A stretch of DNA of 63,957 bases, the filler included. It is 8 parts of 8 records of this genome, joined end to end, with 100 filler letters (N's around TTAATTAATTAA, not from the genome) between each part and the next. Parts side by side here need not be neighbours in the genome. Positions count along the whole stretch, not along the records: positions 12,629 to 19,747 come from SRR31156797_47758; 7 more parts are not named here. One strand, 5' to 3'. Below the pieces are notes generated by a model, which worked only from the letters and a program-made list of their open reading frames with translations, was not told the DNA's origin and did not search any database. The position numbers and the translations under genes were made by a program. Numbering within the stretch: position 1 is the stretch's first letter; each line of letters starts with the position of its first letter. Below, piece by piece: positions 6,053-56,625 of the stretch.

Positions 6053-6152
6053 NNNNNNNNNNNNNNNNNNNNNNNNNNNNNNNNNNNNNNNNNNNNTTAA
6101 TTAATTAANNNNNNNNNNNNNNNNNNNNNNNNNNNNNNNNNNNNNNNNNNNN
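6053..6152. other. Artificial contig spacer
   Basis: N-run + TTAATTAATTAA (stops in all six frames) + N-run; base composition changes across it. Confidence 0.98.
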
Positions 6153-9703: not shown

Positions 9704-10627
9704 ATGATGAATCGAAGGGAGTTTCTCAAAATTCAGTTCAGGGGTATCCTGTGCATGATGGCGGGAGGATCCGGAATATTGCTTGCCCGGGAAGCAATCG
9801 CTGCCCCCTTTCCCGACATTGCCGTGGTCCGGGGAGGGCCTGCGGCGGCCACCCGGGCCGCGGTGGAGCTCTTAGGCGGCATGAAACGGTTTGTAAGCCC
9901 TGGGAACCGCGTGGTCATCAAACCCAATATGAGCTTTCCCACACCACCCGAAAGGGCCTCCAACACCCACCCGGAAGTAATTGGGGAGTTGGCCCTTATG
10001 TGCAGGGAAGCGGGTGCCGGAAGTGTGCTGGTCCTGGACCATACCCTGGGACCGGAGGAACTTTGCATGGAAAGTTCAGGCATTGCCAGGGAATGCGGAG
10101 CCATCAGTAAAGATATGGTATTTACCATCAACGATCAACGGTTCTACCAGGAGACCAACCTTCCAAAAGGGAAAAGCATGATGAACGCCGACATTGCGAA
10201 AGAGGCCCTCAAATGCGATGTTCTCATCGCTGCTCCCGTGGCCAAAAGCCATTCCAGTACCGGCGTCAGCCTTTCCATGAAAGGGATGATGGGGCTCATT
10301 TACAATCGCAGGGTAATGCACTGGCAATATGATCTCAATGGGTCCATTGTGGATTTATGTACGGTATTGAAAGCCGATCTGACCATCATTGACGGCACCC
10401 GGGTACTTTCCACAAACGGCCCGCGAGGGCCTGGCAAGGTTTTGAAAGAAGACACCATTATCGCCTCAAAAGATATGGTGGCCGCCGATGCCTATGCGGT
10501 TTCAGCCTTTGAATGGTATGGTAAAAGGTTCGAACCAAGGCAGGTCAAACACATCCGTGAAGCCCATGATCGCGGTCTGGGCCGGATGGATGTGAAAAAC
10601 CTGGACATCAAGACCGTTAAACTATGA
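9704..10627 (+). CDS. Tat-exported DUF362 family protein
   Basis: NRREFLK twin-arginine signal; VVIKPN, NTHPEV, PVAKSH...SLSMKGMMG, SKDMVAAD motifs. Confidence 0.85.
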   Translation: MMNRREFLKIQFRGILCMMAGGSGILLAREAIAAPFPDIAVVRGGPAAATRAAVELLGGMKRFVSPGNRVVIKPNMSFPTPPERASNTHPEVIGELALMCREAGAGSVLVLDHTLGPEELCMESSGIARECGAISKDMVFTINDQRFYQETNLPKGKSMMNADIAKEALKCDVLIAAPVAKSHSSTGVSLSMKGMMGLIYNRRVMHWQYDLNGSIVDLCTVLKADLTIIDGTRVLSTNGPRGPGKVLKEDTIIASKDMVAADAYAVSAFEWYGKRFEPRQVKHIREAHDRGLGRMDVKNLDIKTVKL

Positions 10628-12282
10628 TTGCGTTTCGACGCACCATTCAGCTTCTGAGTCTGGGACTTTTTTTCCTGTTGCTGACCCTGGCCGTCATTTC
10701 ATTTCAAAACCCCGAATCTCTCGATCTGTTCATGAGACTGGACCCGGGTCTGGCGCTTTTGACAGCCATCAGCGCCAGAACCCTGGCGGTTGCCTTTGTT
10801 CCGGCACTGCTGGTCCTTGTTGCCACCCTTTTTTTCGGGCGGATTTTCTGCGGTTATATCTGTCCCATGGGGACCACCCTGGATGGCGGAGACAGGCTGT
10901 TTGGCATCAATGGAACTTCCGGCAGGAAACACCGGGATTTCAAACATTCGAAATATCTGGTGCTCTTTTTTTTGCTGGGGGCCGCACTGCCGGGTGTATC
11001 CCTGCTTTTCCTGGCCGCCCCCCTTTCCCTGATTACCCGGTTCTATGGCCTTTTGATCCACCCGGTTCTCGCCCTCATATGCCACAAGTTTCTGGATCTG
11101 CTGCATCCCCTTGCCGAACAATTCAACCTGAGCTCCATTGTTTTTGCTCAGTTGGCAACACCCAAGTTCACCACCCAGATGTTCATATTGCTTTTTTTCG
11201 GTCTGGTCTTCTTTCTGGCACGGCTCTCCCCCCGTTTCTGGTGCCGCAATCTTTGCCCCTCCGGGGCCCTCATGGCGATCTTCTCCATCAAGCCCCTTAT
11301 CCGTCGCCGCGTTTCTCCGGCCTGCACCGCGTGCGGAAAATGCATTTCATCCTGTCCCATGGGGGCCATACCCGTAAAAAACCCTCAAGACACCCGCCAT
11401 GAAGAGTGTATCGTATGCCGCACCTGCGAAGCCCTCTGTCCGGAACGGGCCATCCGCTTTGGTCCGGCACAAAGGGCTCGGGCTGTGGAGAAAACCCCCA
11501 TTTTTTCAGAACGCCGCCGGTTCATTTTTTCAGGCTGTTTGGGCGCCACCGTTGCCGTCACCGGGCTCTCCGGATTGCATGCCCCTGGCGACAAACCCGG
11601 ACCGGGCCAAGCGGCACCGCCAAAGCTTATCAGGCCGCCGGGAACCCTGCCCGAATCTGCATTCCTCTCCCGGTGCGTCCGCTGCGGCGAGTGCATGGCG
11701 GCCTGCCCCACCAATACCCTTCAGCCCATCTGGTTTGATGCCGGTCTCATGGGCCTGTTCAGCCCGGCCCTGACACCCCGGCGCGGTTACTGCAGCCCGG
11801 AGTGCAACATGTGCGGCCAGGTGTGTCCCACAGGCGCCATCAGGGCATTGTCTCGGAAAGAACGAATCTGGGCCAAGACGGGCACGGCCGTTATTTATCC
11901 CGGGCGCTGCCTGGCGTGGGAACAGCAGAAAAGCTGCATGGTATGTGATGAAGTCTGTCCCTACAAAGCGGTTATATTTCAAAAAAAACCGGGCAATCGG
12001 GTCCCGGTCCCCCGGGTGGAGGAAAAAAAGTGCGCCGGATGCGGCTACTGCGAACACTACTGCCCGGTGCACAATGAAGCCGCCATCGTGGTAACCCCCA
12101 TGGGCAGCCTCAGGCTTTCCGAAGGATCCTACATGGACCAGGGAAAAGCACAGGGGCTCAAACTCTCCATCCATAAGGCGGCCGGGCATCCCGAACTCCC
12201 CGAAAATGAAGGCGGACAACCCGGATTCGCACCCGGTTTCGATGATGCGTCGACCCCGGCGCCGGAACGCCGATGGACCTGA
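10624..12282 (+). CDS. Membrane 4Fe-4S polyferredoxin (NapH/NapG-like fusion)
   Basis: TM region with FCGYICPMG and WCRNLCPSG, several CxxCxxCxxxCP motifs, internal RRRFI and IRPPG NapG/MauM-like segment. Confidence 0.85.
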   Translation: MIAFRRTIQLLSLGLFFLLLTLAVISFQNPESLDLFMRLDPGLALLTAISARTLAVAFVPALLVLVATLFFGRIFCGYICPMGTTLDGGDRLFGINGTSGRKHRDFKHSKYLVLFFLLGAALPGVSLLFLAAPLSLITRFYGLLIHPVLALICHKFLDLLHPLAEQFNLSSIVFAQLATPKFTTQMFILLFFGLVFFLARLSPRFWCRNLCPSGALMAIFSIKPLIRRRVSPACTACGKCISSCPMGAIPVKNPQDTRHEECIVCRTCEALCPERAIRFGPAQRARAVEKTPIFSERRRFIFSGCLGATVAVTGLSGLHAPGDKPGPGQAAPPKLIRPPGTLPESAFLSRCVRCGECMAACPTNTLQPIWFDAGLMGLFSPALTPRRGYCSPECNMCGQVCPTGAIRALSRKERIWAKTGTAVIYPGRCLAWEQQKSCMVCDEVCPYKAVIFQKKPGNRVPVPRVEEKKCAGCGYCEHYCPVHNEAAIVVTPMGSLRLSEGSYMDQGKAQGLKLSIHKAAGHPELPENEGGQPGFAPGFDDASTPAPERRWT

Positions 12283-12528: not shown

Positions 12529-12628
12529 NNNNNNNNNNNNNNNNNNNNNNNNNNNNNNNNNNNNNNNNNNNNTTAATTAATTAANNNNNNNNNNNNNNNN
12601 NNNNNNNNNNNNNNNNNNNNNNNNNNNN
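12529..12628. other. Artificial contig spacer
   Basis: N-run/TTAATTAATTAA/N-run. Confidence 0.98.
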
Positions 12629-13201
12629 ATATATCATTGGTAAAATATCAGAGAGTCCGGCAATTCCTCCTGCACTGTTTAATACATCGTGAAAAAAAAC
12701 ACGTTCCAGGGTTTGTCTTCTTTTTTCGTTGCTGATATCTGTTACGGTGAAAATGGTGAATTTATCGCCCTTTAACTTAAATGGAGTTGAAGTTATTTTT
12801 AGGTCGAGAGCATTTGTTTCAGCAGTAAGAATCCTGCATTCTTGTGTTGATTGTGACCCGGTTTGTGCGTCTAAAATAGAATTAACAGCTCCGCAGTTTC
12901 TGCAAAATTCACTGGTTCCACAACCTCCATCTTCTCTGAAAGCATATAAACAATTTACCGCTTCTCCAGGTCGTTTACCAAGTATCTGGTTTTGTTTTTC
13001 AAGTCCTAACAGGGTGAGAAACATTTTGTTGGCATAGATGATCTGTCTTTCTTTATTTAAAATTACAACCATCTGGGATAGGGCATCCAAAAGGGCAACA
13101 AGTACTTTGTTCGTACTGATTAATTCTAAACGTTGTTCCAGTATTTCCTTGGGGGCTCTTTTTGCCGGAGCAAATTTTGTAGATAAAGCATTTTTTTCCA
13201 T
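12629..13201 (-). CDS. PAS-domain histidine kinase, N-terminal part (3' truncated)
   Basis: PAS-like domain with Cys cluster (C...GCGTSEFCRNCG) then H-box LERVFFHDVLN. Confidence 0.8.
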
Positions 13202-13362
13202 ACAGTTAGTTTTATTAAGCTAGTTAAAGAAGACTAATAAAGCTCCTCTTCCTTATAAATTTAATAATAATCAAATTAAAAAACCAGACCAGGAATGAAC
13301 TGGTTCATACTTAAATGGGCTAACCGGAGAAAGATTTTATTGAAATAGCTAATCAAAAAAGG

Positions 13363-14691
13363 TTATCCTAATTTTTGTTGTACAGGTAGATTCCACTCTT
13401 CAATCATGGTTATTCCTAGTTTTTCCAGCTCATTTAAAATAGGCATATATATCGATTTTGAAACGGGAATATGAACACCTGTATCTGTAATTTTACCGTC
13501 TAAAATCATTTTTGTGCCAATAGCAGCCGGAAGTGCAACTGTTCTGGCAATTGAAGTATCTTTATTTGTGGCAAAATCCAGAAGACGAGACTGAACTACC
13601 TCGTTTGTTCCATCTGTCTTTTCAATTAGAAAAGAGTGTAGCATGATTACCATGTCGCGGCCATTATCCGACAACATCATTTTTCGCTTCATCAGGTCGG
13701 TAAGTAGGTCGAGACTCGAACCCTCGCTAAATGGGACAAGGTCGTCGCTAAATAATCCTAACCATTCCATTGCGAGTATAGCCGGACTGTCAATGGAGAG
13801 GTTGAGAATACCTGCTATCTTTTCTTTCATATTAGCCGGATAAACATTTACCTGGCGAGCCATAATCTTTTTATAGGTCTTGTTGTCAAATGATTGTGGT
13901 TCAGTACTCGTTAAGCCCAGGGTTTTTAAAGCATCCATAATTTCGCACCAATTGGGGTAACGGAAAGTTCCCCGGTACATGGTTTCAATATTTGGTAAAT
14001 TATAAATGTTGATGTAGGCCAGCGAATCGCGATTGGGATAAACATCCATTTCTCCAATTTCAGGGAAATTAATTTTCATCGGATTCTTAAATAATTGTTC
14101 GGTTGGGAGCTCAATAACATTTCCGTTTTTTTTGAATTTAGCTCCGTTGTTACCGGCCAATAACACCCCTTTGGGCGACCACGAAAATTTGTATCGGAAT
14201 GGGTTGTTGGCTTCCTCAGGAGCAGGTAAGGCACCGCACAACGAATAAAACTCTTTTATCTTTCCACCGCTTTCATGTACTTTATCGATAATGCGCATGG
14301 CCGTCATGTGGTCGAATCCCGGATCAACACCAATTTCATTTAAAATAATTATTCCGGCGGATTTGGCTGCCGCATCCAATGCTTTCATTTCTTCCGAAAC
14401 ATATGAAGAGGTAAGCATGTTTTTTTGGTGTTTTATACAAAGTTTGGCTACTGCTACATGGTACTGGTAAGGCAGCAAGCTTACCGTTAGGTCGTGTTCA
14501 GCAATTAATTTATCAAGTGTTTCCTCATTAGTTGTTGTCCATTGCAAGGCTTTTCCGTTTGTTCTTCCTGCAATTAATTTTATTGCCTTAGCTACGGTCC
14601 GACTGGCTATGGTAAGTTCTATATGGTTGTTTAGTAGATAATCTACAAGTGGTTTGGCAACCATTCCGGCTCCAAGTAATAGTACCTTCAT
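13363..14691 (-). CDS. Saccharopine dehydrogenase (glutamate-forming, Lys9/AASS-SDH type)
   Basis: VLLLGAGMV Rossmann fold, EIGVDPGFDHM, YSLCGALPAPE, YKFSWSPKGVL, YPNRDSL, RGTFRYP, SIARTVALPAAI. Confidence 0.92.
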   Translation of the reverse strand: MKVLLLGAGMVAKPLVDYLLNNHIELTIASRTVAKAIKLIAGRTNGKALQWTTTNEETLDKLIAEHDLTVSLLPYQYHVAVAKLCIKHQKNMLTSSYVSEEMKALDAAAKSAGIIILNEIGVDPGFDHMTAMRIIDKVHESGGKIKEFYSLCGALPAPEEANNPFRYKFSWSPKGVLLAGNNGAKFKKNGNVIELPTEQLFKNPMKINFPEIGEMDVYPNRDSLAYINIYNLPNIETMYRGTFRYPNWCEIMDALKTLGLTSTEPQSFDNKTYKKIMARQVNVYPANMKEKIAGILNLSIDSPAILAMEWLGLFSDDLVPFSEGSSLDLLTDLMKRKMMLSDNGRDMVIMLHSFLIEKTDGTNEVVQSRLLDFATNKDTSIARTVALPAAIGTKMILDGKITDTGVHIPVSKSIYMPILNELEKLGITMIEEWNLPVQQKLG

Positions 14692-14875
14692 ATTTTCTAT
14701 CTCCTTAATTGTTTCTGTTGTATGAACGAAATTTTCTCTTTTTCGTTTTGATTTTTGTGGTTTTTACAAAAAGCCTGGTAATATCGTAAAATTTAATTTA
14801 ATAATTCCTGACGAAGATCTGTTTTGTAAAACATCACAAAAATCATTATCTATAATACATAATTTTTATAAATTA

Positions 14876-15093
14876 GGCGCATGGTACAATCGTATTCATG
14901 TCCGGTTTTTTTCTATCAAGGCATGCCTGAATGTCTTGATGAAGATACAGTTTCGCACAAGCTGTAATCGCAGCAAAATTTATTCCATTCTTTTATTGGC
15001 ATGTGCCACCTCTTTTAGTAAGGTATTCTTTTGATCGGTTGTCGGTAAAAGAACATCGGAATCTGTCTGAATGCTAACTGCATTCAGTATTTC
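14876..15093 (+). promoter_or_regulatory. Candidate structured 5' leader RNA of the aminomutase operon
   Basis: Four hairpins plus a long-range closing helix, with G-U pairs favouring the + strand (see findings). Confidence 0.5.
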
Positions 15094-15132
15094 AACGTAA
15101 ATAAATATAAACGTACAATTAAAAATTGGAAC

Positions 15133-16692
15133 ATGATGAAAAGTGAACCAAATAACACCGACGTAAAGTCAATGTTGGAAGCCTATGATCTTGCACCAAA
15201 ATCTTTGGCAACAATAGAAGAAGAGAATTTAATTTCCCGGGGATTACTAAAACGATTGCATAATTGTTTCCCGGCTTATTCCGGATTTTTAAAAACCGGA
15301 AAAGCAACCTTTACCAGCAAGATTCATTATACGGGCTTAAAAGGATTTCGCGAAATTATTGATATTTTGAAACAAAAAGGGATTGAAATTGAAGCGATAA
15401 AAGAACGGGAATTCTTTCTTGAAGTTTATCGTTTTATGGCCACTAAACATATCTTGAACTGTATGAACTGGGAGAAAATTGAAGATGATCCGATCTATCA
15501 TCTGATTTTTCCACAGCCCGGAATGATAGATAAGGCAGATGTTCAAAAATATCTGGATACCCGGAATGACGGGGAACGCCGGAAAGTTGTTGAAGCATAC
15601 CAGTTAAAAACAAATCCACACGATGGCAAGCAAAAATTAAACAAACCATTCTTTTACAACGACGAGGGTTGTTTGGAGGTTCTTGAAGGAAGTCAACATA
15701 AATATCCGCCAATTAAACTTGTTCTCGATCAGGGCACTCAAAATTGTTTTGCATTTTGCACCTATTGTTTCCGTCATGCACAAGTTCGGGGCGACGAAGA
15801 TATGTTCGTGCAGAAGGATATCAATCAGGTACATAATTACTTGAAAAAACACAAGGAAATAACCGATGTATTGATTACCGGAGGTGATGGGGGATATATT
15901 TCTTTTGAACGTTTGGAAGAGTATGTAAAACCAATGATTGAGGATGAAGACCTTATGCATATTCGAACACTACGCATTGGTTCAAGAGTACTGACTTTTC
16001 ATCCTGAATTTTTACTCACTGATAAATTCAGAAAGATTCTTGAACTTTTGCGTTTTGTTATCAATAATGGTATTCAGGTGGTTTGGATGTCGCATTTTTC
16101 AACTCCTCGAGAGTTGTTAAATCCGGTTACTATAGCAGCCATAAAACGACTTAAGAATTACGGGCTTACATTAAAAAGCCAAAGTCCGATAATGAATCAC
16201 ATCAGCCTCTTTCGCGACCAAAATGGGAAAGTAGATGTCGATCGGTCGGCTCAAAACTGGATAGACCTGGGGAATGTTCTTGCCATGTTAGGTGTTGGTT
16301 TTCACTCCATGTATTGTGCACGACCAACAGGTGAACATCATTATTTTACTGCCCCTTTAGCTGATATTACAAAAATCTTTAGCAAGGTCTATCGCGAACT
16401 GGCCTCAATTAATCGCCCGTCGCGGCATATAACTATGACTTCTTCAGCCGGGAAAACCTCTTTAATGGGGACAACGATAATCAACGGTGAAAAAGTTTTT
16501 GTGCTGAAATTCAATGAGGCACGGAACATGACGTGGATGGATAGCGTATATTTTGCCGAATACGATGAAGAGGAAAATACCATTGAGAAACTAATACCAT
16601 ACAAGGTTGACAAATATTTTTATGAGGATGAGTTGGCCAATATCGAAAACCAACTTGAGGAAGCACTAAAGAGAGAAAAACATAAAGCTTAA
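15133..16692 (+). CDS. KamA-family radical SAM/PLP 2,3-aminomutase with non-lysine-type substrate residues
   Basis: QHKYP, CFAFCTYCFRH (CxxxCxxC), DVLITGGD, LRIGSR, SQSPIM, SSAGK (putative PLP lysine). Confidence 0.88.
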   Translation: MMKSEPNNTDVKSMLEAYDLAPKSLATIEEENLISRGLLKRLHNCFPAYSGFLKTGKATFTSKIHYTGLKGFREIIDILKQKGIEIEAIKEREFFLEVYRFMATKHILNCMNWEKIEDDPIYHLIFPQPGMIDKADVQKYLDTRNDGERRKVVEAYQLKTNPHDGKQKLNKPFFYNDEGCLEVLEGSQHKYPPIKLVLDQGTQNCFAFCTYCFRHAQVRGDEDMFVQKDINQVHNYLKKHKEITDVLITGGDGGYISFERLEEYVKPMIEDEDLMHIRTLRIGSRVLTFHPEFLLTDKFRKILELLRFVINNGIQVVWMSHFSTPRELLNPVTIAAIKRLKNYGLTLKSQSPIMNHISLFRDQNGKVDVDRSAQNWIDLGNVLAMLGVGFHSMYCARPTGEHHYFTAPLADITKIFSKVYRELASINRPSRHITMTSSAGKTSLMGTTIINGEKVFVLKFNEARNMTWMDSVYFAEYDEEENTIEKLIPYKVDKYFYEDELANIENQLEEALKREKHKA

Positions 16693-16696
16693 AAAT

Positions 16697-17419
16697 ATGA
16701 TCAACAAAGTTGTAAAATCGGCAGAAGAGGCAGTTGCCGGAATTTTCAACGGTGCAACCGTTATGATCAGTGGTTTTGGTGAGGCCGGGAGTCCGGTTGA
16801 ACTGATTCATGCTTTGGTTGATCAAGGGGCTAAAGATCTTACAATTGTGAGTAATAATGCCGGAAGTGGTCATGTTGGGCTGGCTGCTTTAATCGAAAAC
16901 CGGCAGGTTCGGAAAATTATTTGTTCTTTTCCACGAACAGCCATATCCGTTGTATTTCCTGAATTGTATCGTGCCGGGGAGGTTGAGCTGGAACTGGTTC
17001 CCCAGGGAACACTGGCCGAAAGAATTCGTGCTGCCGGTGCCGGAATTCCTGCATTTTATACTCCAACGTCGGTTAATACGCCCTTGGCTACCAACAAGGA
17101 AAAAAGAGAGTTTGGTGGAAAAACATACGTAATGGAAAAAGCCATTAATGCCGACTTTGCTTTGGTTAAATGCCTTGCGGCCGATAAATATGGTAATTTG
17201 ATTTATAATAAAACTGCCCGAAATTTTGGACCGGTTATGTGTATGGCAGCTAAAACTACAATTGTACAGTCAAAACAAGTAGTTAAAGTTGGAACAATCG
17301 ATCCGGAACATGTGGTTACTCCGGGAATATTTGTTCACTGTGTTGTTGAAATTGCTAATCCCGAAGATGAATCAAAACTGGTCTCACAAAATGTAAAATA
17401 CCATGGAATCAAACACTAA
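16697..17419 (+). CDS. pcaI: 3-oxoadipate/3-oxoacid CoA-transferase subunit A
   Basis: MINKVV, GFGEAGSPVELI, SNNAGSG, CSFPR, VPQGTLAERIRAAGAGIPAFYTPT, TARNFGPVM; CSFPR and NNAG are typical of PcaI. Confidence 0.82.
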   Translation: MINKVVKSAEEAVAGIFNGATVMISGFGEAGSPVELIHALVDQGAKDLTIVSNNAGSGHVGLAALIENRQVRKIICSFPRTAISVVFPELYRAGEVELELVPQGTLAERIRAAGAGIPAFYTPTSVNTPLATNKEKREFGGKTYVMEKAINADFALVKCLAADKYGNLIYNKTARNFGPVMCMAAKTTIVQSKQVVKVGTIDPEHVVTPGIFVHCVVEIANPEDESKLVSQNVKYHGIKH

Positions 17420-18062
17420 ATCAGTAGGTTGGAGTACAGCTGAAATGGCACAAAAAGTGGCTATGGATATTCATGATGGAGCCTATGTCAATCTGGGTAT
17501 AGGAATTCCTGAAATGGTTGCGGATTTTATTCCCGAAGGCCGGGAAGTGATTTACCACACCGAGAACGGTTTGTTGGGAATGGGAAAGGTTGCAACAGAA
17601 GGTAATGAGGATCCGGAGTTGGTTAACGCCGGTAAAAAATATGTTACTGCAATTCCAGGTGCAGCTTACTTTCATCATGCCGATAGTTTTGCAATGATAC
17701 GTGGAGGACATATCGATATATGTATACTGGGGGCTTACCAGGTTTCAGAAGAAGGAGACCTGGCGAATTGGTCAACCGGGAATCCTGGTGATATTCCGGC
17801 GGTTGGAGGAGCAATGGATTTGGTAGCAGGCGTGAAAACAATATTTGTGATCACTAAACATGTAACAAAAAACGGAGTGCCCAAAATTGTTAAAGAATGT
17901 ACTTATCCGTTAACCGGAAAGAACGTGGTAAGCCGTATATACACAAACTTAGCTGTTATCGACGTGGTAAATAAAAAGCTCTTTGTTCGGGAAATGGCTC
18001 CCGAAGTTCATATTGATTACCTGCAAAAATATACAGAAGCAAAACTGTATTTGATGGAATAA
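17403..18062 (+). CDS. pcaJ: 3-oxoadipate/3-oxoacid CoA-transferase subunit B
   Basis: YVNLGIGIP, HTENG (catalytic Glu), SFAMIRGGHID, GDLANW, AVGGAMDL. Confidence 0.82.
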   Translation: MESNTKSVGWSTAEMAQKVAMDIHDGAYVNLGIGIPEMVADFIPEGREVIYHTENGLLGMGKVATEGNEDPELVNAGKKYVTAIPGAAYFHHADSFAMIRGGHIDICILGAYQVSEEGDLANWSTGNPGDIPAVGGAMDLVAGVKTIFVITKHVTKNGVPKIVKECTYPLTGKNVVSRIYTNLAVIDVVNKKLFVREMAPEVHIDYLQKYTEAKLYLME

Positions 18063-18074
18063 AAAAACGATAAG

Positions 18075-19412
18075 ATGTCGAAAAAAGAAAATAGTGAGGA
18101 ATTATACTCAAAAGCTAAAAATGTAATTGTTGGTGGAGTGAGTAGGAATACTGTTTTTCGGAGACCGTATCCAAATTATGCCAATACAGCTTCGGGTTGT
18201 TTTATTACGGATATTGAAGGCAATGTACGTACTGATTTTGCAAACAATATGGCGGCCCTTATTCATGGGCATTCTTTTCCTCCAATTATTGATGCGGTAA
18301 TCGAACAGCTAAAAAAAGGAACTGCGTATACTTTGGCTTCAGAAATTGAAGTGGCTTTTGCCACGCACTTGATTGAACGAGGGAAAAGTTTTGAGCGAAT
18401 ACGTTTTATGAATTCTGGGACCGAGGCAGTAATGGCAATGATTAAAGCCTCCCGGGCCTACACTGGTCGTCCAAAAATTGCTAAAGCAGAAGGAGCCTAT
18501 CATGGCACCTATGACTTTGCAGAAGTAAGTCAGACTGCCAATCCATCAAATTGGGGGAAAGAAGACAGACCGACAAGTGTACCGCTGGCACATGGAACTC
18601 CTCCTTGTGTATCGAAAGATGTGATTGTTTATCCTTACAATAATATTGAACGAACATTAAGCATACTCGATAAACAGGCAGCAGATATTGCTTGTGTAAT
18701 TATAGATCCTGTGCCACATAGGGTAGGATTAATGCCCGGGAACGCTTCTTTTATTGAAGCCATTTATGACTGGACCAGAAAAAACGAAGCGCTTCTGGTT
18801 TTTGATGAGGTGATTACTTTCAGGGTAAACTATGGTGGGGCACAAGATAATTATAGCGTAAAACCAGACCTTACATCTCTTGGAAAGATCATTGGAGGAG
18901 GATTTCCGGTTGGTGCTGTTGCCGGAAGTGCAGAAGTAATGCGTGTTTTCGATCCGCATGAAAGCAATCTTCTGCTTCCTTATTCGGGTACTTTTTCGGC
19001 TAATCCTATCACCATGACAGCCGGTTACGAGGCGATGAAATATTTTGATAAGAAAGCTGTTTCAAAACTAAATTCGCTTACCAATGTAGCGGTAACTCAA
19101 ATTTGCGAGGCAATTAAAACTGCCGATGTGCCAATGTCTGTTACCGGTGCAGGTTCAATGTTTCGTATTCATTTAAAACAAACTGCACCAACTACTTATC
19201 GCGAAGCTTTTCTTTCCGACGACGGAAAAAAGCTTATAAACGAATTACTGGATTACATGTATTACGAAGAAAATACACTGATGATCAATACTTTTTCTTG
19301 TATGCTTTCAACTGTAATAACACAACGGGAAATTGATAAATTAACAGAAGGACTTTATCGTGCTTTTGTGAAGCTGAAACCTAAAATTGAAAAGTTAAAT
19401 AAAGAACGATGA
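18075..19412 (+). CDS. Class III PLP aminotransferase (GSA-aminomutase-like / beta-amino acid transaminase clade)
   Basis: RFMNSGTEA, GAYHG, FDEVITFR, PDLTSLGKIIGGGFPVGA, SGTFSANPITM. Confidence 0.85.
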   Translation: MSKKENSEELYSKAKNVIVGGVSRNTVFRRPYPNYANTASGCFITDIEGNVRTDFANNMAALIHGHSFPPIIDAVIEQLKKGTAYTLASEIEVAFATHLIERGKSFERIRFMNSGTEAVMAMIKASRAYTGRPKIAKAEGAYHGTYDFAEVSQTANPSNWGKEDRPTSVPLAHGTPPCVSKDVIVYPYNNIERTLSILDKQAADIACVIIDPVPHRVGLMPGNASFIEAIYDWTRKNEALLVFDEVITFRVNYGGAQDNYSVKPDLTSLGKIIGGGFPVGAVAGSAEVMRVFDPHESNLLLPYSGTFSANPITMTAGYEAMKYFDKKAVSKLNSLTNVAVTQICEAIKTADVPMSVTGAGSMFRIHLKQTAPTTYREAFLSDDGKKLINELLDYMYYEENTLMINTFSCMLSTVITQREIDKLTEGLYRAFVKLKPKIEKLNKER

Positions 19413-19428
19413 GTTACAGGCTGTATGA

Positions 19429-19459
19429 TGGCAGGTTAACTGGTTTTAGTTACCTGCCA
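19429..19459. other. Intergenic hairpin without U-tract (possible mRNA stability element)
   Basis: TGGCAGGTTAACT-GGTTTT-AGTTACCTGCCA inverted repeat with one bulge. Confidence 0.45.
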
Positions 19460-19508
19460 AATACACCGTTCTCATTACAAAGAATCTAAAATCTCAATAC
19501 GAATAAAA

Positions 19509-19747
19509 ATGAACGACGTTTTTATATGCGATGCAATCCGGACACCGGTTGGAAAATATGGAGGATCACTTTCATCTGTTCGTGCCGATGATCTGGCTGC
19601 TATTCCGTTAAAAGAACTAATCCGGCGAAACCCGGGGATGAATCCGGGTGCTGTTGATGACATTATTCTTGGTAATGCGAATCAGGCAGGAGAAGATAAT
19701 CGTAATATTGCCCGTATGGCACTGCTGCTTGCAGGTTTTCCGGAAAC
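19509..19747 (+). CDS. pcaF: 3-oxoadipyl-CoA thiolase (PcaF/PaaJ type), 3' truncated
   Basis: VFICDAIRTPVGKYGGSLSSVRADDLAAIPL and GNANQAGEDNRNIARMALLLAG, characteristic of the PcaF/PaaJ N-terminus. Confidence 0.85.
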
Positions 19748-19847
19748 NNNNNNNNNNNNNNNNNNNNNNNNNNNNNNNNNNNNNNNNNNNNTTAATTAAT
19801 TAANNNNNNNNNNNNNNNNNNNNNNNNNNNNNNNNNNNNNNNNNNNN
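19748..19847. other. Artificial contig spacer
   Basis: N-run/TTAATTAATTAA/N-run. Confidence 0.98.
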
Positions 19848-19987: not shown

Positions 19988-20623
19988 GTGGATAAAGAAA
20001 TCAAACCTTCAATAAAAGTATCAAAGAATGGTCCCTACATTGCGAAAAATGTAGAAACGCTCAGGAATTCAAAGGGTGTTTTCATTGAGACAAAACCTGT
20101 CATGACACTTTGTAGATGTGGAGGCTCTGCGAAGATGCCATTTTGTGACGGAACACATGCAAAGAAAGGTTTTTCCGGGGCAAATGAAAAAGACCGTGTT
20201 CCCTCTGGAGTTGAGACTTACGTAGGGAAAGATATTAGCATCCACCGCAACAAGGATGCGTGTTGCCATGTAGGCCACTGTGTTCGTAATCTGCCTGATG
20301 TTTTCAAAAAGGGTAAAGACCCTTGGGCAGACCCGGATGCTGTAGATAAGGAAGAGATAGCAAAGCTCATCAGGACCTGTCCTTCCGGCGCATTGAGTTA
20401 TACTATCAACGGAGAATTGCATAAGGATTATTCACGTGAGCCTGAGATCTTCATTCTGAAGGATGGACCTTACAATGTCACAGGGATAGAGCTTGATAAT
20501 CCCGATGACTCAGTACCCGAGACCCAGGATCATTATTCTCTTTGCAGATGTGGAGCCTCTCAAAACAAACCATTCTGTGACGGCACTCACCGTGATGTTA
20601 AGTTCAAGGATGAGAAGAATTGA
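19988..20623 (+). CDS. CDGSH Fe-S protein (two CDGSH domains flanking a divergent ferredoxin domain)
   Basis: LCRCGGS..MPFCDGTH and LCRCGAS.NKPFCDGTH; central CCHVGHC...CPSGAL. Confidence 0.9.
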   Translation: MDKEIKPSIKVSKNGPYIAKNVETLRNSKGVFIETKPVMTLCRCGGSAKMPFCDGTHAKKGFSGANEKDRVPSGVETYVGKDISIHRNKDACCHVGHCVRNLPDVFKKGKDPWADPDAVDKEEIAKLIRTCPSGALSYTINGELHKDYSREPEIFILKDGPYNVTGIELDNPDDSVPETQDHYSLCRCGASQNKPFCDGTHRDVKFKDEKN

Positions 20624-32970: not shown

Positions 32971-33070
32971 NNNNNNNNNNNNNNNNNNNNNNNNNNNNNN
33001 NNNNNNNNNNNNNNTTAATTAATTAANNNNNNNNNNNNNNNNNNNNNNNNNNNNNNNNNNNNNNNNNNNN
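32971..33070. other. Artificial contig spacer
   Basis: N-run/TTAATTAATTAA/N-run. Confidence 0.98.
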
Positions 33071-41949: not shown

Positions 41950-42049
41950 NNNNNNNNNNNNNNNNNNNNNNNNNNNNNNNNNNNNNNNNNNNNTTAATTA
42001 ATTAANNNNNNNNNNNNNNNNNNNNNNNNNNNNNNNNNNNNNNNNNNNN
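41950..42049. other. Artificial contig spacer
   Basis: N-run/TTAATTAATTAA/N-run. Confidence 0.98.
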
Positions 42050-51282: not shown

Positions 51283-51382
51283 NNNNNNNNNNNNNNNNNN
51301 NNNNNNNNNNNNNNNNNNNNNNNNNNTTAATTAATTAANNNNNNNNNNNNNNNNNNNNNNNNNNNNNNNNNNNNNNNNNNNN
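51283..51382. other. Artificial contig spacer
   Basis: N-run/TTAATTAATTAA/N-run. Confidence 0.98.
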
Positions 51383-56525: not shown

Positions 56526-56625
56526 NNNNNNNNNNNNNNNNNNNNNNNNNNNNNNNNNNNNNNNNNNNNTTAATTAATTAANNNNNNNNNNNNNNNNNNN
56601 NNNNNNNNNNNNNNNNNNNNNNNNN
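56526..56625. other. Artificial contig spacer
   Basis: N-run/TTAATTAATTAA/N-run. Confidence 0.98.

Follow-up and report, generated by a model that had tools for sequence, protein, structure and literature searches.

A proposed 2-aminoadipate 2,3-aminomutase operon that may link lysine breakdown with the β-ketoadipate branch in Prolixibacteraceae and other bacteria

In the lower β-ketoadipate pathway, PcaIJ and PcaF convert 3-oxoadipate to succinyl-CoA and acetyl-CoA. Lysine fermentation in clostridia and fusobacteria runs through KamA, KamDE, Kdd, Kce, Kal, AtoDA and a thiolase, and the HglS route of 2-aminoadipate catabolism is oxygen-dependent. We analyzed a 63,957-base stretch of DNA, called the window below, in which a gene for a KamA-like radical S-adenosylmethionine (SAM)/pyridoxal 5′-phosphate (PLP) protein is followed by genes for the two subunits of a PcaIJ-type CoA-transferase, a class III aminotransferase and a PcaF-type thiolase. 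We believe that these five plus-strand genes make up a catabolic module complete in itself, whose substrate is an acidic α-amino acid and most likely L-2-aminoadipate. The argument draws on the family-level identities of the genes, their conserved linkage, substitutions in the active site of the radical SAM enzyme, and an association with the genes that lead from lysine to 2-aminoadipate.

The operon lies on a single 7.1-kb contig, positions 12629-19747 of the window. The KamA-like protein (519 aa) is encoded at 15133-16692 (+), the CoA-transferase subunits A (PcaI/ScoA) and B (PcaJ/ScoB) at 16697-17419 (+) and 17403-18062 (+), the aminotransferase at 18075-19412 (+), and the N-terminal ~80 residues of the thiolase at 19509-19747 (+). 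From one gene to the next there is a gap of 4 nt, an overlap of 17 nt, and gaps of 12 nt and 96 nt. A saccharopine dehydrogenase (SDH) gene at 13363-14691 (–) diverges from the radical SAM gene across a gap of 441 nt. A preliminary description of this DNA had named an operon of a KamA-family gene, pcaI, pcaJ and a class III aminotransferase gene with a divergent SDH gene, and both the genes and their tight spacing were confirmed.

The product of 15133-16692 is a divergent relative of the KamA family and not a member of it by the NCBI cut-off (TIGR00238, 79 bits against 199.2). Curated models for lysine, arginine and glutamate 2,3-aminomutases and for EpmB scored 57-69 bits against cut-offs of 369-650. 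The values were 68.6 bits against 525.4 for lysine 2,3-aminomutase (LAM; TIGR03820) and 59.8 bits against an equivalog cut-off of 650 for glutamate 2,3-aminomutase (TIGR04368). The KamA assignment of the preliminary description holds at the family level only, all curated aminomutase models having stayed far below their cut-offs. A profile of the enzyme clade and its nearest relatives matched LAM (PDB entry 2a5h) with an E-value of 8.8e-40. The AlphaFold model of the enzyme (predicted local distance difference test score 91.2) also found its best fold match in 2a5h (E 7.5e-17, template modelling score 0.66, target-normalised), with the next radical SAM enzyme at 5.9e-5. Identity to LAM was ~17-19%, and the enzyme has ~100 extra residues at the N-terminus and ~80 at the C-terminus.

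Catalytic features of LAM were retained, and its substrate-binding pair was replaced. The Fe-S/SAM motif C205-x3-C209-x2-C212 is present, with the three Cys at least 90% conserved in a 40-sequence alignment; R214 aligns with LAM R134, and the GGD motif is also retained. In a profile-profile alignment with the canonical LAM of Draconibacterium orientale, K441 aligned with the Lys of the ...VVDAPGGGGK motif, T434 with the Asp of the same motif, and R397 with the Asp of ...YQCD. The YQCD Asp is D293 of Clostridium LAM by residue numbering, and D330 and K337 were assigned by spacing. In the paper on the 2A5H structure, D293 and D330 are said to bind the ε-ammonium group of lysine, K337 the PLP, and R134 the α-carboxylate. 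With these roles, the enzyme keeps the PLP Lys (K441) and the α-carboxylate Arg (R214), and carries Arg (R397) and Thr (T434) in place of the lysine-binding Asp pair. The motifs around R397 and T434 were identical in nine aligned clade members, including ones labelled Lentimicrobium, Chlorobiaceae and Acidobacteria, so that a single substrate specificity across the whole clade is likely. The reversal of charge at the site of the distal group fits a dicarboxylic amino acid, and 2-aminoadipate would be near-isosteric with lysine. We propose that the 15133-16692 product is a 2-aminoadipate 2,3-aminomutase.

The protein family is large. A word-filtered search returned 1436 proteins at E ≤ 0.001, the best 120 at 66-83% identity, and nearly all were labelled "hypothetical", left unnamed, or called "(L-)lysine 2,3-aminomutase". 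The ESM Atlas label for the enzyme's cluster was only "hypothetical protein". In an exhaustive search of representatives, similarity dropped at the edge of the clade, from 60% to at most 37%. The orthologue in one genome of the window's bacterial family (G101:C169:4470-6026) has an in-frame TAA, a sign of a possible pseudogene or of a possible error in the sequence.

The SDH encoded at 13363-14691 is of the LYS9 (glutamate-forming) type: it has both Pfam domains (PF16653, Sacchrp_dh_C, 268.3 bits; PF03435, Sacchrp_dh_NADP, 83 bits) and is nearest to characterised enzymes, its best PDB matches being the saccharopine reductases of yeast and Magnaporthe (2axq, 314.1 bits; 1e5l, 312.9 bits) along with the SDH domain of human AASS. 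Both CoA-transferase subunits scored above the PcaIJ/ScoAB subfamily cut-offs (subunit A, TIGR02429, 350.5 bits against 128.5; subunit B, TIGR02428, 299.3 against 243.55; PF01144, 223.8 and 153 bits, respectively). The best PDB match of subunit A was subunit A of the Bacillus subtilis succinyl-CoA:3-ketoacid CoA-transferase (3cdk, 230.9 bits).

The aminotransferase (PF00202, 180.3 bits) belongs to the branch of class III that holds glutamate-1-semialdehyde (GSA) aminomutases and β-transaminases. HemL (GSA 2,1-aminomutase) was rejected as its identity, the TIGR00713 score of 328.6 lying below the equivalog cut-off of 527.3. The best PDB match was 6k8h (364.2 bits), followed by GSA aminomutases at ~215 bits and β-phenylalanine/β-transaminases at 171-183 bits (β-phenylalanine aminotransferase 4ao9, 182.9). 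Entry 6k8h is an ω-transaminase of Sphaerobacter thermophilus, used on β- and γ-amino acids according to one paper (PMC10589169). We propose, from these matches, that the enzyme is a 3-aminoadipate (β-amino) transaminase. The thiolase fragment in the window aligned with positions 1-80 of the pcaF models (NF006551, 134 bits; TIGR02430, 131 bits against an equivalog cut-off of 597, from the 80-residue fragment only). The contig ends at 19747 and Ns follow from 19748, into which the listed thiolase open reading frame (ORF), ending at 19799, extends. A full-length orthologue from D. orientale (L002:14381-15583) scored 657.6 bits with TIGR02430, above the cut-off, and matched the β-ketoadipyl-CoA thiolase 6pca at 534.9 bits versus ~320 for acetoacetyl-CoA thiolases. 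The thiolase thus scores as PcaF-type through its full-length orthologue, in agreement with the type named in the preliminary description, whereas the window copy is a fragment of ~80 residues cut at 19747.

Results beyond the window were all drawn from the genomes of relatives, with taxa taken as labelled in record titles. For gene linkage, one genome per species was scanned by pattern, and the best 80 loci of 223 matching stretches make up the sample. Titles among these 80 loci included Draconibacterium, Sunxiuqinia, Maribellus, Mariniphaga, Lentimicrobiaceae and Salinivirgaceae, as well as Ignavibacteria, Melioribacteraceae, Chlorobiaceae, Balneolales, Acidobacteria and Candidatus Edwardsbacteria. 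The order aminomutase-pcaI-pcaJ-aminotransferase-thiolase, on one strand, was found in 67 of the 68 loci whose downstream sequence reaches 3.3 kb or more, and in the 12 truncated loci every gene that fits was there. The conserved order spans Bacteroidota, Ignavibacteria, Chlorobi-like, Acidobacteria and other metagenome-assembled genomes (MAGs). Given 67 of 68, the gene order recurs beyond chance. In the exception, a MAG contig labelled Tangfeifania (L014:49-3269), a gene for 2-aminoadipate semialdehyde (AASA) dehydrogenase (AASADH) directly follows the aminomutase gene, and no transferase, aminotransferase or thiolase gene lies within 4.5 kb downstream. Conservation of the linkage in other genomes had been put forward in the preliminary description as a check on its pathway. 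The core passed this check across several phyla, and the SDH gene was linked in 25 of the 80 loci, which where a taxon is named all come from Prolixibacteraceae genera.

The locus exists in two forms. The extended form, with AASADH (NF050084, 808.5 bits against a cut-off of 730), was found in 24 of the 80 loci, those of the window's closest relatives (67-76% identity). AASADH is encoded after the thiolase in 23 of these and directly after the aminomutase in the Tangfeifania-labelled contig. A second SDH-like gene follows AASADH in 23 loci; its product is 32-35% identical to the first SDH, and both are nearest to LYS9-type saccharopine reductases. The divergent upstream SDH gene, as in the window, was present in 19 of the 80 loci. 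In two Sunxiuqinia loci (L001 and L003) a gene for lysine-ketoglutarate reductase (LKR) lies between AASADH and SDH, its product matching the corresponding domain of human AASS (8dda) at 133 bits, and Draconibacterium and Maribellus encode a 60-61% identical LKR elsewhere in the genome. Stand-alone LKR homologues in two genomes (G006 and G167) lie in unrelated gene contexts. Together, the LKR, the SDHs and AASADH would supply 2-aminoadipate from lysine, a closer tie to lysine than the preliminary description had been able to show. The core-only form, without adjacent lysine genes, accounts for the remaining 56 loci.

The association extended to whole genomes of the window's family, Prolixibacteraceae. 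Among 151 family genomes, 13 encode an orthologue of the aminomutase and 40 encode AASADH. AASADH was present in all 13 orthologue-bearing genomes and in 27 of the 138 others (Fisher p = 6e-9, uncorrected for shared ancestry). One family member without the module (G058) has an AASADH-SDH-HGLS operon (L093:7258-11160), which resembles the oxygen-dependent route that leads through 2-oxoadipate to 2-hydroxyglutarate. One and the same gene pair, AASADH-SDH, is thus attached to a known 2-oxoadipate enzyme family in one case and to the module in the other.

In the 441-nt gap upstream of the aminomutase gene we found a conserved micro-ORF at 14881-14967 (+), of 28 aa here and 26 aa in most relatives, ~165 nt from the aminomutase gene. 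It contains a Cys codon and was present in 24 loci plus the window, which is every extended-form locus whose upstream DNA is available; the other 56 loci gave no hit when searched with its motif. Variable alignment columns numbered 7, 7 and 24 of 26 at codon positions 1, 2 and 3, a coding signature, and the peptide sequence itself is therefore under selection. The peptide had no Pfam match. A short stem-loop with a 5-bp stem (14961-14974, +) overlaps the micro-ORF stop codon, is followed by a T-rich tract and appeared terminator-like in a terminator scan. In an 18-sequence alignment its pairing was kept through two-sided changes at the third pair in L003 and at the fourth in L012 and L019, and the stem paired poorly in L006. 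The stem-loop is a possible attenuator or terminator, and the arrangement suggests that the micro-ORF encodes a candidate ligand-sensing leader peptide controlling read-through into the operon, or else a small protein. A permissive Rfam scan of 12629-19747 returned nothing at E ≤ 1 and hence no known riboswitch. Neither predicted promoters (18 versus 20.0 ± 4.6 in shuffles) nor predicted terminators (11 versus 6.2 ± 2.7) exceeded shuffled sequence. In 19 core-only loci a gene for an XRE-HTH/cupin (PuuR-like) regulator lies just upstream of the module.

From these observations we infer, as follows, what the module acts on, each of its reactions, and which of transamination and CoA transfer comes first. 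The KamA-type radical SAM/PLP enzyme would shift the amino group of 2-aminoadipate from C2 to C3, giving 3-aminoadipate. The class III aminotransferase would then pass this amino group to a 2-oxoacid, leaving 3-oxoadipate, which the PcaIJ-type transferase would activate with succinyl-CoA to 3-oxoadipyl-CoA. Thiolysis by the PcaF-type enzyme would yield acetyl-CoA and succinyl-CoA, and the succinyl-CoA would recharge the transferase. In sum, 2-aminoadipate, a 2-oxoacid and CoA would give an amino acid, succinate and acetyl-CoA. Such a route would need no oxygen and involve no net redox change, would suit anaerobic or facultative hosts, and would give every gene a role. In Prolixibacteraceae the module would be wired to lysine through the SDH upstream and through AASADH and the second SDH (sometimes with LKR) downstream. 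We consider the sequence from 2-aminoadipate through 3-aminoadipate, 3-oxoadipate and 3-oxoadipyl-CoA to succinyl-CoA and acetyl-CoA the best reading of the locus, and put it at somewhat better than an even chance. The fuller proposition is about evenly balanced in our judgment: that this is the first 2-aminoadipate 2,3-aminomutase, at the core of a widespread oxygen-independent pathway, and that a 26-residue metabolite-sensing leader switches the lysine-to-succinate operon of Prolixibacteraceae.

The pathway had been put forward in the preliminary description, and the results bear on it in both directions. In its favor are the conserved linkage, the adjacency of AASADH, the replacement of the Asp pair, and the types of the thiolase and aminotransferase. 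Several observations weigh against it. Canonical AASADH was found in only 10 of 25 sampled core-only genomes and was missing from 15 (present in 1/5, 4/5, 0/5, 3/5 and 2/5 by batch; these are MAGs and may be incomplete). The loci with adjacent AASADH, where named, all belong to Prolixibacteraceae genera, and the linkage to lysine genes may reflect one ancestral fusion. AASADH is near-universal at the class level (268 of 301 genomes, including two unpublished ones, G271 and G357), so its broad co-occurrence carries no weight. A complementary distribution of HglS and the module was not found in the family sample, where an HGLS homologue was present in 13 of the 13 orthologue-bearing genomes. The window's own contig stops before the position at which relatives carry AASADH. 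The PcaI/J models and PDB matches do not separate 3-oxoadipate from acetoacetate transferases, and the best match was the B. subtilis ScoA. An Arg equivalent to R397 also occurs in most of 31 out-group KamA-like proteins and therefore does not single out 2-aminoadipate; it could equally bind the γ-carboxylate of glutamate.

Among AASADH-negative core-only genomes, 4/5 still have an SDH of ~450 aa and one has an adjacent LKR-SDH pair. In those genomes another aldehyde dehydrogenase may oxidise the semialdehyde, which is a guess. The core-only genome G165, without canonical AASADH, encodes an LKR-like (AlaDh_PNT) protein next to an SDH at L101:7940-10642, so the first two steps of the saccharopine pathway are present there.

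Several of these points also bear on an alternative in which the enzyme is a glutamate 2,3-aminomutase and the linkage to lysine genes is secondary. Glutamate would be converted to β-glutamate and then to 3-oxoglutarate, which would either lose CO2 to give acetoacetate and two acetyl-CoA, or be activated and split to malonyl-CoA and acetyl-CoA. As a substrate glutamate is much more common, an Arg where LAM has Asp would suit a distal carboxylate of any kind, and the known glutamate 2,3-aminomutase likewise replaces both Asp, reportedly with Lys and Asn in the 2007 work of Ruzicka and Frey. The CoA-transferase is nearest in the PDB to ScoA-type acetoacetate enzymes, and most loci are core-only and have no lysine genes in their surroundings. 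Of 25 genomes with loci of this kind, 15 are without canonical AASADH. The saccharopine route also releases glutamate, which would explain a secondary link to lysine. Against this alternative, the glutamate model TIGR04368 fell far below its cut-off, and the orthologous thiolase passed the pcaF equivalog cut-off and scored well over acetoacetyl-CoA thiolases with its β-ketoadipyl-CoA match. AASADH, whose product is 2-aminoadipate, is encoded in the same operon in 24 loci and once directly beside the aminomutase. Moreover, a succinyl-CoA-dependent transferase would not be recharged by such a route. We regard the glutamate assignment as unlikely.

A variation keeps 2-aminoadipate as the substrate and places CoA transfer first, from 3-aminoadipate to 3-aminoadipyl-CoA and on to 3-oxoadipyl-CoA, with no free β-keto acid. 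The transferase genes do precede the aminotransferase gene, and a class III acyl-CoA β-transaminase, 3-aminobutyryl-CoA transaminase, acts in a variant of lysine fermentation. However, the transferase subunits scored well above the cut-offs of 3-oxoacid CoA-transferase subfamilies, and the nearest solved relative of the aminotransferase acts, by the paper cited above, on free β- and γ-amino acids. This order of steps appears quite unlikely.

Another α-amino acid might enter the same sequence of α-to-β shift, β-transamination, CoA activation and thiolysis, which would suit any such substrate, and the enzyme clade matches no curated substrate-specific model. Lysine would pass through β-lysine and 3-oxo-6-aminohexanoate to 4-aminobutyryl-CoA and acetyl-CoA; leucine would pass through β-leucine and β-ketoisocaproate to isobutyryl-CoA and acetyl-CoA (the old Poston scheme); and a longer dicarboxylic amino acid such as 2-aminopimelate could serve as well. 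The lysine version is opposed by the loss of both ε-amino-binding Asp and by the canonical LAM already encoded in 3 of 5 host genomes tested. A neutral amino acid is opposed by the conserved Arg at the distal-group position and by a thiolase in the dicarboxyl-CoA (PcaF/PaaJ) branch, and the neighborhoods carry no pointer to leucine or pimelate metabolism. Taken jointly, we find these substrates very unlikely. That the radical SAM enzyme is no free-amino-acid aminomutase at all, and modifies the micro-ORF product or another protein, or that the module is biosynthetic for a β-amino dicarboxylate, is highly improbable. In its favor, the KamA family score is below its cut-off, a conserved Cys-containing micro-ORF stands just upstream in the window's lineage and a related KamA-like paralogue has a housekeeping context; against it, the micro-ORF motif was found at 0 of the 56 other loci although the active-site motifs are identical across lineages, the PLP Lys and α-carboxylate Arg are kept, and the fixed partners are catabolic, with AASADH feeding in the oxidative direction.

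The preliminary description had also noted that ring-cleavage and kamDE/kdd/kce genes were not visible, which means little on a 7.1-kb contig. Related genomes extended the observation: Kce/BKACE (PF05853) and intradiol dioxygenase were each found in 0 of 5, as was KamD (PF09043), the last a weak negative since the search gave no signal in any control genome. Neither kce nor kamD was among the annotated genes neighboring the loci. A canonical LAM (TIGR03820, ~770 bits against 525.4) is encoded elsewhere in 3 of the 5 genomes tested, and we therefore rejected the notion that the operon enzyme is a spare LAM. In D. orientale this LAM gene is at G006:C67:59759-61006 (L095), and it is also present in G007 and G008 (the three are Draconibacterium and Maribellus genomes). 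These genomes encode in addition a KamA-like protein of ~735 aa, which brings the KamA-family paralogues to as many as four in a genome. Another KamA-like paralogue, ~435-455 aa long and 30-37% identical (L086:7286-8638 in D. orientale, G006), was detected at ~180-235 bits in 60 further genomes of the 151 and is far commoner than the operon enzyme. The D. orientale paralogue follows mreB-mreC-pbp2-rodA, two genes from an HGLS homologue, and, judged by coordinates, the distance between paralogue and HGLS is no more than a few kb in many sampled family genomes. The housekeeping context of the nearest paralogue (35% identity), after mreBCD-pbp2-rodA, gave no hint of a substrate.

The window consists of eight contigs joined by seven N44-TTAATTAATTAA-N44 spacers, at 6053-6152, 12529-12628, 19748-19847, 32971-33070, 41950-42049, 51283-51382 and 56526-56625. 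Its contigs range in G+C from 0.32 to 0.64, and the bin may be mixed. Ends of ORFs that cross spacers, such as 12581-13201 and 19509-19799, are artefacts. The operon contig begins with a fragment of a PAS-domain protein (PAS_9, 33.9 bits) at 12629-13201 (–), cut by the contig start; an AI-2E transporter occupies this position in relatives. The preceding contig (~0.54 G+C) encodes at 9704-12282 (+) a DUF362 protein and then a 552-aa poly-ferredoxin with NapG/NapH-like 4Fe-4S domains. The next contig encodes at 19988-20623 (+) a protein of 211 aa, in which a divergent 4Fe-4S mono-cluster domain is combined with two CDGSH iron-sulfur domains.

Full-text literature searches returned no 2-aminoadipate aminomutase, no 3-aminoadipate as a pathway intermediate and no such gene cluster; subscription journals and ~1.7 million further PMC articles lay outside the search. 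Full-text searches on the rival β-glutamate route and on lysine or saccharopine in Draconibacterium also returned no such pathway. In full texts, 3- or β-aminoadipic acid was mentioned in four papers, in metabolomics or meteorite lists and once, as "{beta}-aminoadipic", in a misprinted reference title. The enzymes belong to known families; the activity, and the junction of lysine catabolism with the β-ketoadipate branch, would be new. If the proposal is right, radical SAM aminomutases would gain a new substrate class and 3-aminoadipate would be a new natural β-amino acid intermediate, on a route that turns lysine or 2-aminoadipate into succinate and acetyl-CoA without oxygen and in redox balance. 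In anaerobic Bacteroidota, Ignavibacteria and others, lysine catabolism would then meet the β-ketoadipate branch, and the label "lysine 2,3-aminomutase" would mislead those who reconstruct the metabolism of anaerobes from sediments, digesters and the gut. The enzymes, if operated in the reverse direction, would bear on bio-based adipate and β-amino-acid chemistry. Harmless cultured strains suited to testing include D. orientale DSM 25947, D. sediminis, D. mangrovi and Maribellus spp.

Set beside the known aminomutases, the operon enzyme resembles LAM (KamA/AblA, 2A5H) in its CxxxCxxC motif, the Arg after the third Cys, the GGD motif and the PLP Lys, and LAM is its best PDB match in both sequence and fold. 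It differs in having Arg and Thr where LAM has its two ε-amino-binding Asp, at an overall identity of ~17-19%. With glutamate 2,3-aminomutase (TIGR04368) it would share an acidic substrate, a place in the wider KamA family and the replacement of the Asp pair, as reported for the known enzyme; the replacements here are Arg and Thr, however, and the operon partners speak for a carbon skeleton of C6 and not C5. The micro-ORF invites comparison with TnaC and SpeFL, which are metabolite-sensing leader peptides. The likeness is that of a short conserved ORF before a catabolic operon, with a stop codon overlapping a stem-loop here, and lies in layout alone; stalling, ligand and termination are hypothetical for the micro-ORF.

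At the level of pathways, the module ends like the lower β-ketoadipate pathway, its transferase subunits passing the pcaI/scoA and pcaJ/scoB models and its orthologous thiolase passing pcaF and matching the Pseudomonas putida-type 6pca. The difference lies in the feed: ring-cleavage genes were not found here (intradiol dioxygenase, 0 of 5 genomes), and an amino acid would enter by way of a β-amino intermediate, in hosts that are anaerobic or facultatively so. Clostridial and fusobacterial lysine fermentation has the same frame, a radical SAM 2,3-aminomutase at the start and a CoA-transferase and thiolase at the end, but its Kce/BKACE and KamD were found in 0 of 5 genomes here and the aminomutase of the operon is not lysine-type. 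Carbon from 2-aminoadipate would flow to succinate and acetyl-CoA, in contrast to the butyrate and acetate of lysine fermentation. The upstream SDH and AASADH are common to the extended locus and to the saccharopine/2-oxoadipate/HglS route, as the AASADH-SDH-HGLS operon of G058 illustrates. Pfam gives the HglS family the name of a dioxygenase, whereas the module described here would bypass 2-oxoadipate without oxygen.

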